From an uncultured Chloroflexia bacterium (lineage in GTDB: Bacteria > Chloroflexota > Limnocylindria > QHBO01), in the NCBI GenBank assembly GCA_963838125.1, contig CAWIPT010000004.1:10232-74231 (forward strand): a stretch of 64,000 nucleotides of DNA, read 5' to 3'. Position numbers and translations under genes: made by a program. Below are positions 26,664 to 35,935 of the stretch, piece by piece. The stretch's first letter is position 1. The number at the start of each line of letters is the position of its first letter. The notes below the pieces were generated by a model. The model did no database searches and was not told where the DNA came from. It saw only the letters and a program-made list of their open reading frames with translations.

Positions 26664-28158
26664 TCAGGCCCGGAATCGATCGATGAGCAGGCCGTGGCGC
26701 AGGCCCCGGTCGCTGACGGTCAACGAGTCCTGGCCGAGCTTGTCCATCACGGTCCTGACGATGCAGGCCCCGGCCAGGATCACTTCTGCCCGTTTGGGCT
26801 GCAGGCCCACGATCTCGCGACGCGCGTCGGCGTCGCGCGACCGGTAGAGCTCGATCTGGCGGTCGAGCTCCGCTCGGTCCAACACCGTTCCCTGCACGAC
26901 GTCCGGGTCGTACGTGGCCAGGCCGTGCTTGACCGCGGTGATGTTGGTGATGGCTCCGCCCATCCCGACCAGCGCATCCGGGGGCGGGCGGCCATCGAGG
27001 CTGCTCAGATCGGCTGCGATGGCATCCATGGCCTGCTGCAGCACGTCTGGCGAGACCTCGCCATCGAGCCCGAACCGTTCGGCGTAGCGCACCGCGCCCA
27101 CGTCAACGCTGAACCGCTCCTCCACCGTCGCCCCGCGTCCGAACGTGAACTGCGAGCTGCCGCCGCCGGTGTCGAACACCACCAGCGAGCTGTCCGGCAG
27201 ACCGATGCCCTGCTGCACCGCGAGGTACGCCAGCCGGCTCTCCTCATCGCCGGGGATGACCTCCACGGTCACGCCGGCTCCGCTCGCGAATGGCGGCAAT
27301 GACCTCGTCGCGGTTGGCGGCCTGTCGGGCCCATGCGGTGGCCACCGCTGCGATGGCCCGCACGTCGTGCTCGCGGGCCTCCGTCACCATCTGACCGATG
27401 GCCGTCGCCGCGCGCTCGAGCGGCTCCGGCCCGACCTCTCCGTTGTCATCAAGGCCCTCGCCGATCCGGGTGACCTCGGCCCGGTCGACCAGCGTCCGCC
27501 ACGATCCGTCGGGGTGGCGTTCGGCAAGGTGGAACTTGATGGAGTTGGTCCCGATGTCGATGACCGCGAATCGCTGCGGCGTGCCGTCGATGAGATCGGC
27601 CAGGCCCCGCGGGTAGCTGGTGTTCACGTAGTCCGCCAGGCCGATCGAGCGGACGGCGGCGATGACCGCGGCCGCATCCTCCGACTCGATCGCCACCGTC
27701 CGGATCTCCCTCCCGCCGGCGGTCACATCCGACAGCTCCGAGGTGCAGCCGCCGATCACGTACCGCACCCGCCGCTTGTGGACCGGTACCGCCCGCAGGC
27801 CCTCGGTCGGCGCCACCAGCTCGTCGCGGAACTGGTCCAGGCTGTACGCCTCGCGCGTGAGGGGCGGAACCGGCCGGCCCAGGGCCTCGTACACCTTCCC
27901 CACGTCCGAGGCAGCCAGCGGGAAGCCCACCTTCATGACCGGGATCCACTGCTCCAGGCCGTCGGGGTTGACCTCCTTGAGGACCTTGATGTCCATGAGG
28001 TCGTCCCGGATCTTCACGTTGTCGGTGGCGCCGGAGAGCAGGTACAGCTCGTCGCTCTCCTGGATGCCGGTCGGCGTGAGCACCCGGAGTACCACGTCGG
28101 CTGCGCCAAACCGTGTGCCGAACGAGCGCCACTCCCAGCGCGGGATGATCTCGGTCAA
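26664..28158 (-). CDS. ppx: Ppx/GppA exopolyphosphatase with an extra N-terminal domain, frameshifted near 27290
   Basis: IDIGTNSIK, AVAT, GDEESRL, DTGGGSSQ, VGMGG, RAEVILAG, GLRHG spread over two ORFs. Confidence 0.82.
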
Positions 28159-28518
28159 CCGGTGCTCCCCGAGGCCTCGTCGTCGGACTCACCGAGCGGG
28201 GCTTCCTCGACTGGCTCCTCGTGGACGCGGCTCGCCTCCACGATCGTTGGCCGCCCTTCCCGATCCTTCCACCGGGTCTCGAGCTGGACGGTGTTATCGC
28301 CCTCCCCCACCAGGAGCAGCACCGCTCGATATCCGCTGCTGGTCGTCTCAACTGCACGCGATCGTGGCTGCGGTCAGCGGGAGCGGCAGCATGGCCACGA
28401 TTGGGCCCAGGTTCGCATGCAGCTCCCGGCTCATGTGCTCGGCTGCCTGACCGATGTCGCCGGTCATGAGCGCAGCACAGAAAGCCTGGGCGTGTTCCCG
28501 GACGGCCTCTTCATTCAT
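28155..28518 (-). CDS. Small hypothetical protein (NTF2-like?), frameshifted, coupled to ppx
   Basis: MNEEAVREHAQAFCAAL... continues as GYRAVLLLVG...LETRWKDREGRPTIVEAS; its TGA overlaps the ppx start. Confidence 0.55.
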
Positions 28519-28538: not shown

Positions 28539-28586
28539 TTGGCTGGGGCGGAAGGATTCGAACCTTCGATCTCCTGATCCAGAGTC
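28539..28586 (-). repeat. att core duplication: 3-prime 48 bp of tRNA-Gln
   Basis: Identical to 30612-30659 (anticodon arm through CCA); the 5-prime half of the tRNA is absent. Confidence 0.95.
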
Positions 28587-28602
28587 CGTCCAACCGGGCT
28601 CA

Positions 28603-28689
28603 GGATACCAATCCGAGCGTGCAGACCGTCCCCCTGCGTCCACCCGTTCCCCCGAAATCCACACGCTAAGGGATACCAATTAGGGTACT
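28603..28689. repeat. Putative integrase arm-type sites, left end
   Basis: GGATACCAAT at 28603 and 28671; GGATACCAATTAGGGTACT at 28671-28689. Confidence 0.55.
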
Positions 28690-28798
28690 GAATGGCCGCC
28701 GTCAGCCGCTCGACGTGGCTGGATTGAAAGTCTGCGTCCCTTCCTGGCTCAAACTGAGTAGGCACGGGATGCGGTTCCGTGCCACAACTGGGGAAGGC

Positions 28799-29347
28799 AT
28801 GGATAGAGAGCTCGTGAGTCGCGCTCAAGGTGGTGACCGGGAGGCATTCGCTCGCCTGGCCTCCGCCGTGACATCGTCGTTCCTGTCGGTCGCGTACCGG
28901 ATCCTGCGCGACGCCGATCTGGCCGAGGACGCCACGCAGCAGTCCCTGCTGACCATCTGGGAGCGGCTCCCGCAGCTCCGCGACCCGGAACGATTCGAGG
29001 CGTGGGCGTATCGGACCCTCGTCCGTGCCTGCTACCGGGAAGGACGGAAGGCAGGACGGTGGGCGCAGCCCATCAGTGTGCACGCACTCGCCGAGCAGCG
29101 GGTGCCGGACGAAGCGGGCGCGGTCCTCGACCGCGATGCGCTCGAACGCGCCTTCCGACAGCTTTCCATGGATCACCGCGCCGTGGTGGTCCTGCGCCAC
29201 TACCGCCACATGTCGCTCGAGGAGGTATCTGCGGCGCTCGACATACCGGTCGGCACCGCCGCCTCGCGCCTCCATTACGCGCTGCGCCAGATGCGCGCCG
29301 CGCTCGAAGCCGATGCTCGACCGGGCGTCGGGAGGGCCGCCGGATGA
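28799..29347 (+). CDS. ECF sigma factor (islet cargo)
   Basis: MDRELVSRAQGGDREAF, LAEDATQ, WAYRTLV, IPVGTAASRLHYA. Confidence 0.9.
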   Translation: MDRELVSRAQGGDREAFARLASAVTSSFLSVAYRILRDADLAEDATQQSLLTIWERLPQLRDPERFEAWAYRTLVRACYREGRKAGRWAQPISVHALAEQRVPDEAGAVLDRDALERAFRQLSMDHRAVVVLRHYRHMSLEEVSAALDIPVGTAASRLHYALRQMRAALEADARPGVGRAAG

Positions 29348-30286
29348 CCAGGGAAGACCACGCCCCTTTCGACCATATCGTCGAGTCATGGCTCGATTCG
29401 CCCGATGACTTCCTCGATCCGGACACCGTCCTGGACCGAGTGATGGCACAGGTCGATACGAGGACGCAACGCCGGGCTCGCTGGCCCGAGTGGAGGATCC
29501 CGCCCATGAACAAGATCGTTACCATCGGCCTCGGCGCAGCTGCCGTGGTCGTGGTGCTCCTCGTCGGTTCCAACCTGCTCAGGTCCTCCAGCCCGCCGCC
29601 GGGCGGGGCGCCGTCCGAATCGGCTGCGCCGTCCGAGGCACCCTCATCGGTCAAGCCGTCAAGCTCAGGCGACGGCAGCCTGCCGGTTGGCCTCCACGTC
29701 ATGAACCTCGATTACGGCTTGAACGAAGCTAGGGCGACGATGACCATTCCCGCCCCGGGCTGGTTCGCGGAATCGGACGGAGAGATCGGTGACCAAGGAT
29801 CTCGGGGGAGACGACCGCGTGACGGTGGTGGCTGTCCCCAATGATTACTACCGGGTGCCACTGAACATCTGCAACTGGCGAGAACCAAAGTAATGAAGGG
29901 AGCCGAGGCGCCGACACGGTCGACGAGCTCGCGGCGTATCTCGCGGAGCAGACCTATGACACGCCAGAGGGATCGCTCACTTGGGAGCTTTCGACCCCGG
30001 TGGACATCACCATCGACGGATATCCCGGTCAATCGATGACAGGTGTCGTGCCGGTTTTCCCCCCGGTGGCTGCGATGAGCAGCGGTTCTGCAGCATGCTT
30101 GACCGGGACAGCGCTCAGTGCCTGCTGTCCCACCTTGAGCCGAATGCGCTTATCACGCTATGGATCGTGGACCTGGGTGATTCCCGCCTGCGGGTCGTCG
30201 CCGCGTCCTATTGGCCGACGACGAGTACCGAGCTTCTCGCCGAAATGAACGCCATTGTCGACTCGATGACCTTCCCCCGCGATTAG
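29344..30286 (+). CDS. Single-TM anti-sigma-like protein (islet cargo), frameshifted
   Basis: ATGA-coupled to the sigma gene; short cytoplasmic N-terminus (PDTVLDRVM), TM IGLGAAAVVVVLLVG, P/S linker, C-terminal LWIVDLG..LRVV..IVDSMTF spread over several frames. Confidence 0.65.
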
Positions 30287-30321
30287 CCCGGCGCTCGAAC
30301 GGCACCCTACACTCCGTGCCG

Positions 30322-30524
30322 ATGGGACGAGCTGACACCTGGCTGTCATCGGCGACCTCGATCACGCGCCCAGCGAGTGGTGCTGGAGGAGCTCGAGGCC
30401 GAGATCAACCAGATCAAGCGGGCCGCCGGCTTCCACCACGTTCCCGACCACGGAGCGCTGGCGACCTGACCCGGCCCAGCTCACCATCGAGGCCTGGAAG
30501 CGACGGAACAAGCTCGTCCGCTGA
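30322..30524 (+). CDS. Possible small protein, frameshifted
   Basis: TACACT box before ATG 30322; coding-like fragments VVLEELEAEINQIKRAAGF and ERWRPDPAQLTIEAWKRRNKLVR-stop lie in different frames. Confidence 0.3.
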
Positions 30525-30535
30525 GAGCTGGCGGG

Positions 30536-30554
30536 GGGTGCTAACTGGGGTACT
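30536..30554. repeat. Putative integrase arm-type site, right end
   Basis: GGGTGCTAACTGGGGTACT matches 28671-28689 at 14/19 positions, and all mismatches are transitions. Confidence 0.5.
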
Positions 30555-30612
30555 CGCCGGAAAACGAAGAGACCCCGGACTGCTCCGAGAGATCGATTCG
30601 TGCTCAGAATGT

Positions 30613-30687
30613 TGGCTGGGGCGGAAGGATTCGAACCTTCGATCTCCTGATCCAGAGTCAGGCGCCTTACCACTTGGCCACACCCCA
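30613..30687 (-). tRNA. tRNA-Gln (anticodon CTG)
   Basis: TGGGGTGTGGCCAAGTGGTAAGGCGCCTGACTCTGGATCAGGAGATCGAAGGTTCGAATCCTTCCGCCCCAGCCA: cloverleaf, TTCGAAT T-loop, encoded CCA. Confidence 0.97.
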
Positions 30688-32816: not shown

Positions 32817-35800
32817 GTGCCTGAGGTCGAGCCAGCGAGCGAGGAACGCAAGCTCGCCACCATCCTGTTCGCCGACCTGGTCGGCTCGACCGCGCTCGCC
32901 GATGAGGAGGACCCGGAGCGGACGCGACTGGTCCTGAACCGTTTCTACGTCGCCATGGCCGAGGAGATCGAGCGCTGCGGGGGCACGGTCGAGAAATTCG
33001 TCGGCGACGCGGTGATGGCCGCGTTCGGAGCGCCGGCAGCGCTCGAGGACCACGCTGAACGGGCGTTGCACGCGGGCCTCGCAATGCAGCACCGCCTCAC
33101 CGAGGAGTTCGGGGAGCAGTTGGCTCTTCGGATCGGCGTCAACACCGGGAACGTCGTGGTCGGACGCCCTCGGGAGGGCAGCTCATTCGTCACAGGCGAC
33201 GCGGTCAACGTCGCCGCCCGGCTGGAGCAGGCTGCTGCGCCGGGAGAGATCCTGGCCGGAGAGCGGACGGTCACAGCCGCCGCGGGCGCGTTCGAGTTCG
33301 GCGATCCGGCGACCGTTGAGGCAAAGGGCAAACCCGGTGGGCTCGTCGCTCGCCGAGTGCTCCACGCCTTGACCCTCATGCGGCCGCGCGGGGTGCGCGG
33401 CCAGGCATCGGTCTTTGTCGGTCGGGAGGCCGAGTTCACCGAGCTGCAGGACCGATACGGCCGAGTGGCGGCCGAAGGGGAGGCGCACCTGGTGTCCATC
33501 CTCGGCGATGCCGGCGTGGGCAAGACGCGGCTCACGCGCGAGATGTGGAGATGGCTGAGCACTCTGGCGCCGGAGCCGATTCGCCGTACGGGGCGCACCC
33601 TGTCATACGGGCAGGGCACGACCTACTGGCCGCTTGGTGAGGTGCTCAAGGAGCACTTCGGGATGGCCGAGAGCGACCCGCCCGAGGCGGTCGCGGCAGC
33701 CCTGGCCGATCGACCATACCTGGGCCTGACCCTTGGTCTGGCCCCCGAGGAGGAGCTCCATCCTCTCGTGGCGCGCGAGCGCCTCCACGACGCCTGGGTC
33801 GACTTCCTGGGCGAGCTGGCCCGCGAGCGCCCGGTTGTTCTCCTGCTCGAGGATATGCACTGGGCCGAGGACGAGCTGTGCGACCTCATCGACACGCTGG
33901 TCGCCCAGGTCCAGGGGCCGCTGCTGGTCCTGGTCACCGCCCGCCCCGAGATGCTCGACCGCCGCCCGGCATGGGGAGGAGCCTGGCACCGCACCTCGGC
34001 CATGCGTCTCGAGGCATTGCCAGCAACCGACAGTGATCGACTGGTGGCCGGGCTGCTGGGGGCCGACGCCCCGGCTGCGATCCGCGAGCTGGTGGTGGAG
34101 CGTGCTGAGGGCAACCCGTTCTTCGTGGAGGAGCTGGTGGGGACCCTGATCGATCGAGGCGTCCTGTCACGCCGAAACGGCAGCTGGGCGTTCGGGGAGC
34201 TCCCGAAGGGGTTCCATGTCCCCGACTCGATCCAGGCCGTTCTGGCCGCGCGGATCGACCTGCTCCCAGAAGCCGAGAAGGCGGCCCTCCAGGCGGCATC
34301 GGTCATCGGGCGCACGTTCTGGACGGGGCCCGTGTACGAGCTGGTTGCCGGGGAGAGCCCCAACTTCGGTCTGCTCGAAGAGCGGGACTTCGTCCGACGT
34401 CGAGCCGGATCCTCGCTGGCCGGCGAGCGCGAGTACGTCATCAAGCACGCGCTGACCCGCGAGGTGGCATACGGGAGCCTGCCCAAGGCCGGCGAGCGCG
34501 GATGCACGCCGCGTTCGCCGCGTGGCTCGAGCGGAGCGCCGAGGGTCGCGACGAGATAGCCCCGTTGCTGGCCCACCACTATCTCGAGGCGGTTCGACCC
34601 GAGGACCAGGACCTCGCGTGGGCCGCCGAGGATGCGGAGGTGGAGCGGCTTCGGGCCGCGGCCGTTGCCTGGGCTCGTCGGGCGGCCGAGCTTGCGGTGG
34701 GCCGCTACGAGATCGACGACGCGCTGACGCTTCTCCGCCGAGCGGTCGAGCTGGAGCCGGATCCCGCCCAGCGGGCCGAGATGTGGTACGAGATCGGACA
34801 TGCCAGCGCGCTGAAGTACGACGGCGAGGGGTTCGTGGCAGCAATGGAGAAGGCGCTCGAGCTGGGCGCGCCCGAGGCCCTGGTGTATCCCGAGCTCGCC
34901 TTCCAGACTGTTCAACGCGCGGGCATGTGGCAGCGTCGCCTCGACGAAAGCATGGTGGACAGGCTGGATTGCGCGCGCCGCGGCGGTGGCACGCAGGCGG
35001 GCACGGCGGCGCACGTACGGTCGCTCGTGGCCCGAGCGCTATGGGACGACGATCTTGACGCGGCGCGATCAGCGCTCGCGGCCGCTGACGAGCTGGGCGA
35101 CGTCCAGCTCCGATCGGAAAGCATGGGTGCGGTACAAGCCGCGCTCCGAGAGACAGGCGAGCTGGATGAGGCGCTCGCTGTTGCGGTGGCCAGAGCCGAG
35201 CTCCTCCCGCTGATCACCGATCCCGATGAACTCGCCGACGCGCTGCTCAACAACGCGATTCTCTACGGGGGTTTCGCAAGGCTGTCTGACGCCCGGGCCA
35301 TGGTGGAACGCTTGGAGGAGACGAGCTCGGGCCTGACGTCACATCACCGGGTACACGCCCTCGGGATGCGGATGCGATTGGAGTGGGCCGTCGGCGCGTG
35401 GAATGCAGTTCGGGGGCTCGCCGGTCGTGCAGAGGAGACGGTCGAGGCCAACCTGGCAACCCCCTGCCCGTTCAACATCGGGCTGTTGCGCATGTCGGCG
35501 CTGGGCATGCTGCATGGCGGCGACGTGGATGAGGCAGCCCGGCTGGTGGCCAAGTCGGAGTCCATCGGGATGGTCGGCTACGAGGGGTTCCTCTCGGATA
35601 GCGCGATGGCTCTGGCCATCGCCCGCGGGGAGCGCGACGAACTGCAGGACATCGTGAATTCGGTCGAGCAGCGTTACTTCACGCCCGGCGCTTGGGAGCG
35701 ATGGGCTACGTTGCTGGACGGGCTCGCCATGCTTGGCGACCGGGAGCGGATCGAGGCCGATGCTCCGCAATGGATCCGCCCGGACTCGTATGTGGCCCCG

Positions 35801-35935
35801 TTCGCGGTTCGGGCCCTGGGCGTGGTCCGCCAGGACCGCGATCTGTTGGCCGATGCGATCGCGCGCTTCGAGGCGATGGGCCTGACGTGGCACGCGGAGC
35901 AGACGAGATTGATGGCGCAGGATCTGCCGGCATGA
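32817..35935 (+). CDS. Class III cyclase + AAA/STAND ATPase + TPR-like protein, frameshifted near 34500
   Basis: LFADLVGST, EKFVGDA, GDAVNVAARLEQ; GDAGVGKT, LEDMHWA, EGNPFFVEE, KHALTREVAY; helical C-terminus in ORF 34502-35935. Confidence 0.87.

Follow-up and report, generated by a model that had tools for sequence, protein, structure and literature searches.

In the account of ICEberg 2.0 (PMC6323972), the cis-mobilizable elements (CIMEs) that make up the ICESt1/ICESt3 group in Streptococcus are flanked by attachment (att) sites and no longer have the genes needed for integration and transfer. In Oenococcus oeni, prophage remnants of 5.2-19.5 kb are described at tRNA sites (PMC8074189), and the description of Islander (PMC4383910) lists anticodon-centred att sites among its types of tRNA island. 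Here we describe a locus to be set beside these, an islet of about 2 kb at the tRNA-Gln(CTG) gene of an uncultured Chloroflexota bacterium, which carries genes for an extracytoplasmic function (ECF) sigma factor and a membrane partner and contains no integrase. It lies in a window of 64,000 nt from contig CAWIPT010000004.1, the whole stretch of DNA that was analysed; bare coordinates below are positions in that window. G000 denotes the source genome, whose assembly comprises 2.2 Mb in 13 contigs, is 87% complete and holds 51 tRNA genes; other G numbers denote compared genomes, among which G021 and G015 are unpublished. We read the islet, with a probability of about 0.7, as a CIME-like remnant, whose parent, a phage-type element with a tyrosine integrase, would have lost the integrase and probably most of its interior.

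The islet is bounded by a perfect direct repeat of 48 nt (48/48 identical) at 28539-28586 and 30612-30659. The original prediction, made for this DNA from its letters alone, had reported this duplication of tRNA-Gln(CTG) at exactly these positions. The two copies are the only matches to the repeat within the window at three or fewer mismatches, and none of 100 dinucleotide-preserving shuffles yields a match. Both ARAGORN and Rfam call tRNA-Gln(CTG) on the minus strand at 30613-30687, the single copy among the tRNA genes of G000. The repeat comprises tRNA positions 29-75, that is, the 3' 47 nt, plus one base past the CCA, and it starts 2 nt into the 5' strand of the anticodon stem, an att site of the anticodon-centred type that Islander lists. 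This boundary, together with the arms described below, supports the earlier suggestion that a tyrosine integrase crossed over at the anticodon loop. The complete tRNA stands on the right and the displaced fragment lies downstream of the tRNA 3' end; a full tRNA followed by a 3' fragment is the layout expected after integration. The interior between the repeats, 28587-30611, measures 2,025 bp (2,149 bp including the repeats). Its base composition differs from that of its surroundings, with a GC fraction of 0.61-0.69 in the islet versus 0.68-0.73 in the flanks, and a GC fraction at third codon positions of 0.78 versus 0.84-0.91. In an Rfam scan the tRNA was the sole match at gathering score. A scan for sigma-70 promoters found none, and one weak terminator-like site was no better than those in shuffled sequence. 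The features of the locus are as follows.

28351-28518, minus strand: small conserved flank gene of 56 aa, which adjoins the tRNA where the site is empty.
28539-28586, minus strand: distal att copy, formed by the native 3' fragment of tRNA-Gln(CTG) after its displacement, with a 48/48 match to the copy in the tRNA.
28587-28705, plus strand: distal arm; the block is conserved and contains the tandem repeats GGGATAC at 28670 and AGGGTAC at 28682, 12 nt apart.
28706-29570, plus strand: sigma-head block, consisting of the upstream region, the sigma gene and the partner N-terminus with its membrane segment, 89% identical to an array unit of G143.
28799-29347, plus strand: ECF-type sigma gene, 182 aa, intact, matching Pfam Sigma70_r2 and r4 and TIGR02937.
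29344-30286, plus strand: partner gene, a putative anti-sigma, with a single membrane segment, which reads in three frames.
30287-30534, no strand assigned: 248 bp in which homology searches detect no gene or relative.
30535-30611, plus strand: proximal arm, with GGGGTGC (30535), GGGGTAC (30547), a degraded hairpin at about 30573-30590 and a TTCGTGCTCAG box at 30597-30607.
30613-30687, minus strand: tRNA-Gln(CTG) by ARAGORN and Rfam, whose 3' 47 nt (30613-30659) would now be supplied by the element; base 30612 completes the proximal repeat copy.

The 2,025 bp of DNA between the repeats are a true insertion at tRNA-Gln. A 6.2-kb query spanning the site was searched against 40 relatives, and 20 stretches were retrieved. 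Comparison of the locus for empty sites, a check proposed with the original prediction, found them in three genomes of the same genus (G016, G017 and G011), where the 56-aa flank gene abuts the 3' end of the tRNA; in G016 homology in the flank continues up to the repeat. The islet interior is present in 0 of 17 same-genus genomes, and the other 175 genomes of the order hold no second copy of the islet, barring a partial match in G143 that is taken up below. The region downstream of tRNA-Gln varies within the genus: a 15-kb stretch is common to G002, G016 and G012 and is not in G000. Across the order the tRNA was matched in 142 of 176 genomes, with two or more matches (fragments or second copies) in 35 of them. 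A second integrase family uses the same tRNA-Gln and is associated with a 54-59-nt repeat. It left a 13.6-kb island for sugar transport and catabolism in G013 (C1:304000-323999), with only an N-terminal integrase trace, and in G006 (C3:355000-364000) the integrase open reading frame (ORF) of this second family starts across the att fragment.

Both arms of the islet are homologous to those of a tyrosine integrase family, named intA here, whose members include G021:C106, G005:C111, G190:C27 and G074:C7. At G021:C106 a 370-aa tyrosine integrase is convergent with tRNA-Gln. Its stop is followed by a pair of GGGGTAC repeats 12 nt apart, then by a strong hairpin, a TTCGTGCTCAG-type box and finally the 3' end of the tRNA. 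At E<=1e-40, 26 of the 176 genomes of the order contain relatives of this integrase. The full order is found also at tRNA-Pro(GGG), in G021:C52 and in G074:C7. G005:C111 and G015:C72 show the same order through the box, followed by shared sequence that is not tRNA, which suggests a target switch to the end of a protein-coding gene. Further members of the family are located at tRNA-Cys and tRNA-Ser(TGA). A small helix-turn-helix ORF was found next to the family integrase. The distant relatives of the integrase (<=45% identity) are on predicted viral contigs, so the intA family looks phage-type; a tRNA is present at 16 of 80 such loci.

The proximal arm of the islet, 30535-30611, follows the family order with repeats and box kept, the hairpin degraded and the integrase missing. 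The islet appears to be a derivative of the intA family and not a full member. For the hairpin segment, the folding energy is -23.7 to -29.5 kcal/mol in four elements that have an integrase versus -12.1 in G000, and three of the four arm repeats of the islet differ from GGGGTAC. The distal arm aligns with the distal arms of G021:C39, G021:C167 and the G015 islet, all unpublished, and it also matches the arm of a tRNA-Pro islet in G000. For the arm alignment, an anchor filter removed three of nine sequences (G190, the G015 islet and G002). When up to two mismatches are allowed, the whole 2.2-Mb genome of G000 has 23 repeat pairs on both strands, and two of these are the islet ends. The GGGTAC repeats are probably integrase-binding arm sites. 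Among the published genomes, G074 shows the full proximal-arm order, at tRNA-Pro, and G005 the order up to the box, while G190 has a family integrase and the box, with no repeat pair passing through the filter; the other published support comes from G002 for the decay series and from G143 for the foreign cargo. From the unpublished G021 and G015 come the family integrase that sits at tRNA-Gln, three of the four comparisons of the distal arm, and one of the two islets with a stub.

Searches of the islet turned up neither an integrase nor a transposase, in agreement with the original prediction, and no serine recombinase. Pfam finds no integrase there, tblastn of the islet with two integrase families and two neighbouring ORFs returned nothing (E>3), and a hidden Markov model (HMM) of nine integrase sequences, run against six-frame islet pieces of at least 12 aa, gave a best E of 5.9, compared with 4e-16 for the positive control. 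A degraded integrase remnant within the islet, which the original prediction had named as the mark of ordinary decay, was likewise not found. A search of the whole of G000 for tyrosine integrases, also proposed there, gave three tyrosine recombinase matches, all on contig C7 and none cognate: no intA integrase is matched at E<=1e-40, and the best relatives are 30-32% identical and Xer-like. No serine recombinase was found in the G000 genome. Since G000 is 87% complete, absence of a cognate integrase from the organism is unproven.

The relatives of the islet form a series in which progressively less of the integrase is left. A fragment with the exact 48-nt boundary occurs in 4 of the 176 genomes of the order, namely G021, G015, G002 and G000. 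In G021 the integrase is present. The islet of G015, 1.25 kb long, retains both arms and, of the integrase, a C-terminal stub of 42 aa. In G002 the repeat is fused to the end of an ORF, and this end corresponds to the final 12 positions of the integrase profile; the match is short (E=0.006 in a four-sequence set), and it ends at the stop codon, as in intact integrase genes. The tRNA-Gln islet of G000 has no integrase stub.

Three further tRNA genes of G000 show related arrangements, all on contig C7. A 558-bp islet lacking an integrase (C7:712757-713436) extends from tRNA-Pro(GGG) to a 45-nt 3' fragment of it that is 98% identical; the distal arm of this islet is homologous to that of the tRNA-Gln islet but degenerate. 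A 1,542-bp islet (C7:1230142-1231827) extends from tRNA-Ser(TGA) to a perfect 56-nt 3' fragment; no integrase was found in it, its interior is rich in G and low in complexity, perhaps because the sequence is poor, and a pair of GGTAC repeats lies near the tRNA end. At C7:746190-755204 the tRNA-Val(GAC) gene is preceded, 8.9 kb upstream, by a perfect copy of 41 nt from its 5' part, and the interval contains a weak tyrosine-recombinase remnant at C7:754149-754424.

The cargo consists of an ECF sigma gene and a coupled partner with a single membrane segment, as had been predicted for the interior of about 2.0 kb. The sigma protein, of 182 aa, matches Pfam regions 2 and 4 and scores 68.9 against TIGR02937 (cut-off 42.9), passing the ECF superfamily cut-off only. 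Among contigs from public metagenomes and species representatives, its nearest relatives have 60-63% identity and come from metagenome-assembled genomes labelled Chloroflexota or Candidatus Limnocylindrales. The start of the partner gene overlaps the sigma stop, and a 4-nt start/stop overlap of this kind is found in 64 of 64 related pairs from the retrieved loci. The partner has about 55 aa on the cytoplasmic side, including a conserved N-terminus of about 45 aa, then one membrane segment and an outside domain. It matches no Pfam or NCBIfam family and no known anti-sigma domain, belongs to a conserved family and is proposed as a putative anti-sigma. The tiny ORF that the original prediction had thought possible to the right of the partner found no backing: 30287-30534 matches nothing in the loci of the 20 relatives and nothing at E<=1e-15 in the other 175 genomes of the order.

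The partner gene appears to change frame near 29775-29800, 29880-29900 and 30055-30066. We considered these changes as proof of a dead gene and rejected that reading. The frame changes are not taken as decay because the segments are otherwise collinear with intact 290-aa paralogs, because one shift falls at a T4C6 run, because ppx is split at different places in G000, G012 and G016 and is intact in five other same-genus genomes, and because small contigs of the assembly hold garbled duplicates. The Ppx/GppA-type gene of the window, at 26664-28158, is split into two frames near 27277; such splits at differing places across genomes indicate indel errors in some of the assemblies.

The cargo is of foreign origin. 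Only one close match to the islet was found among the 176 genomes, in G143, a member of another genus, where 774 of 873 columns (89%) are identical over 28706-29570. The matching block includes the upstream region, the sigma gene and the partner up to its membrane segment, and G143 has it as a single unit in an array of six or more; no tRNA lies within 19.5 kb there. The flanking chromosomal genes of G000 and G143 are only 66-75% identical over ten matched segments. A block at 89% against flanks at 66-75% points to recent horizontal exchange, which may have run in either direction, and the horizontal acquisition of the sigma cargo supposed in the original prediction is borne out. The outside domain of the partner and everything to the right of it have no match at E<=1e-15 in the search of the 176 genomes; with the sigma-head matched and the outside domain unmatched, the partner gene is a mosaic. 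The G143 homology begins 17 nt past the distal arm repeats and ends inside the conserved codons of the membrane segment. At the DNA level, the sigma/partner paralogs of G000 itself have an identity of 68-71%.

Tandem arrays of ECF sigma/partner pairs were noted on G000 contigs C11, C12 and C13 and at G143:C7:324000-343500; the C12 and C13 units are near-duplicates of C11 units with garbled frames. The breakpoint of the mosaic between sigma-head and sensor domain coincides with the conserved membrane-segment codons. A motif, ATTGAAC, stands upstream of the sigma gene in 19 of 61 loci.

The history that we consider probable begins with an element that would have integrated at the anticodon-loop region of the only tRNA-Gln(CTG) gene. 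Its attP would have included the 3' 47 nt of the tRNA; this second copy would now complete the tRNA, and the native 3' fragment would have been pushed 2 kb away. With it would have come a foreign pair, an ECF sigma and a membrane partner, under an upstream region of its own. The integrase gene, which in intact relatives is convergent with the tRNA and directly upstream of the proximal arm, would later have been deleted, and most of the interior was probably lost together with it. Left over would be both att copies, both arm regions and the cargo, a regulatory pair that may still work. The islet in G000 would not be self-mobile, and renewed movement would be expected only if a cognate element arrives, in the manner of a CIME. 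Both the recombination mechanism and the loss of the integrase by deletion, as opposed to its never having been there, are things that we infer.

Several points weigh against this history. The islet itself has no integrase stub, and the deletion is deduced from relatives and is not visible here. The fragment is 48/48 identical and both arms keep their repeat pairs, which would fit a young or still usable element as well. The cargo is placed neatly between the arms. The sole integrase-bearing case at tRNA-Gln (G021) and one of the two stub islets (G015) come from unpublished genomes. Finally, the missing 13% is relevant: with G000 at 87% completeness, the unassembled part might hold a cognate integrase.

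The original prediction had preferred a different explanation, a non-autonomous and minimal integrative cassette that arose or was retained for moving sigma/sensor modules, with the integrase supplied in trans. The perfect 48-bp repeats, the repeat pairs in both arms and the lack of any integrase stub whatever all suit such a cassette, as do the compact layout and the self-contained gene pair, and the 89% identity of the sigma-head to that of another genus means that the module has moved between lineages. Against it, G000 shows no cognate integrase and the other 175 genomes of the order show no second copy of the islet. A search for other tRNA-flanked sigma cassettes came back empty over 160 loci with related sigma genes from public contigs: a tRNA is present at 6 of 80 metagenome loci and at 1 of 80 genome loci, and a duplicated tRNA fragment at 0 of 80 and 0 of 80. 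Public reads cover only small shares of the stretch (at most 0.10 of words), and four runs placed on it gave scattered contig pieces and no junction at the att sites. Integrase stubs persist in sibling islets, the hairpin of the proximal arm has degraded, three of the four repeats have drifted from GGGGTAC, and the G143 copy sits in an ordinary chromosomal array far from any tRNA (none within 19.5 kb). Among integrase-bearing relatives in five genomes, none carries a sigma gene as cargo; one sigma gene does lie near a family integrase, at G021:C30, and is outside the element because it is on the far side of tRNA-Leu. We consider the trans-mobilized cassette unlikely. The alternative that the original prediction had also named, a larger island that lost its interior and kept both ends, fits the evidence better.

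A broader scheme would have intA elements of Limnocylindrales-like Chloroflexota shed usable att-flanked miniatures that shuttle sigma/anti-sigma heads between genera and so feed the arrays, with sensor domains swapped at the membrane-segment codons. We offer it as speculation with rather long odds.

It is also conceivable, though distinctly improbable, that the remnant was already empty and that the sigma pair entered later, by recombination with a sigma/partner array or with incoming DNA. The start of the G143 homology so close to the distal repeats (17 nt) and its stop within the membrane-segment codons are what such an event might leave; the outside domain of the partner, being of other origin in a mosaic gene, and the many paralogous units in G000 are likewise compatible with it. 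The paralogs of G000, at 68-71% DNA identity, are hence not the source, and no mechanism sets a foreign module exactly between the arms more simply than its arrival with the element. An assembly artefact, in which chimeric or duplicated sequence was joined at the tRNA during metagenome assembly, is very remote: many species of the order share the 48-nt tRNA segment without a difference and the assembly shows signs of indel error, but two switches at the 48-bp repeat would be required, both flanks match same-genus genomes at an equal 75-85%, the arm structure of a real element stands at exactly the right places, and two other genomes hold islets of the same build.

Two observations elsewhere in the region and genome are recorded here. 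At 32817-35935 of the window, two same-strand ORFs of 580 and 477 aa overlap by 58 nt and may be one gene split by an indel. At G000:C1:13515-13607, ARAGORN calls a 93-nt 'tRNA-Asp(atc)', of which 89 nt recur at 100% identity at C7:10960-11048; the pair may be a tRNA-like repeat or a redundant contig.

The probable remnant of an intA element described here adds no new principle, as att-flanked elements without a recombinase are already known as CIMEs and prophage remnants. Its interest lies in a clean, dated-looking case of decay in small genomes of soil Chloroflexota, from full element to integrase stub to bare islet across four genomes, and in a regulatory sigma module that appears to have crossed a genus boundary recently. 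A literature search on CIMEs, Limnocylindria islands and integrase-less tRNA islets, with supplementary files outside its scope, returned nothing on this lineage. As the method is set out in the Islander description, the islet resembles Islander islands in having an intact tRNA whose displaced 3' fragment shares its orientation and lies on the correct side, and differs from them in having no tyrosine integrase within or overlapping it. It just enters the stated length range of 2-200 kb (2,025 bp, or 2,149 bp with the repeats). With no integrase and a 2-kb lower limit, islets of this kind are discarded by Islander by design, and the integrase and length filters of island finders would lead to their being under-counted.

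The cargo is like known ECF sigma/anti-sigma pairs (TIGR02937) in that the sigma factor has regions 2 and 4 only and is translationally coupled to a single-pass membrane protein, and unlike them in that the partner has no Pfam or NCBIfam anti-sigma domain and belongs to a large unnamed family, found here in Chloroflexota arrays. The islet resembles the O. oeni prophage remnants, as that study describes them, in its reduced size, its tRNA target, the defect or loss of the integrase, the tandem occupancy of sites and a cargo that may still serve the host; it is far smaller (2.0 kb), retains no phage gene and carries a regulatory gene pair. The closest comparison is with CIMEs as the ICEberg 2.0 account defines them. 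Like a CIME, the islet keeps attL and attR, with a 48/48 core and repeat pairs in both arms, though its hairpin is degraded; it is without integration and transfer genes; and its ends are related to those of integrase-bearing elements, so that by analogy it might be moved only with or by a cognate element. Unlike a CIME, its parent family looks phage-type and not conjugative, its arms are partly degraded, and its mobilization is suggested by analogy only. Where the CIMEs of the ICESt1/ICESt3 group reside in Streptococcus, the islet resides in an uncultured Chloroflexota bacterium, and its target is a tRNA gene.

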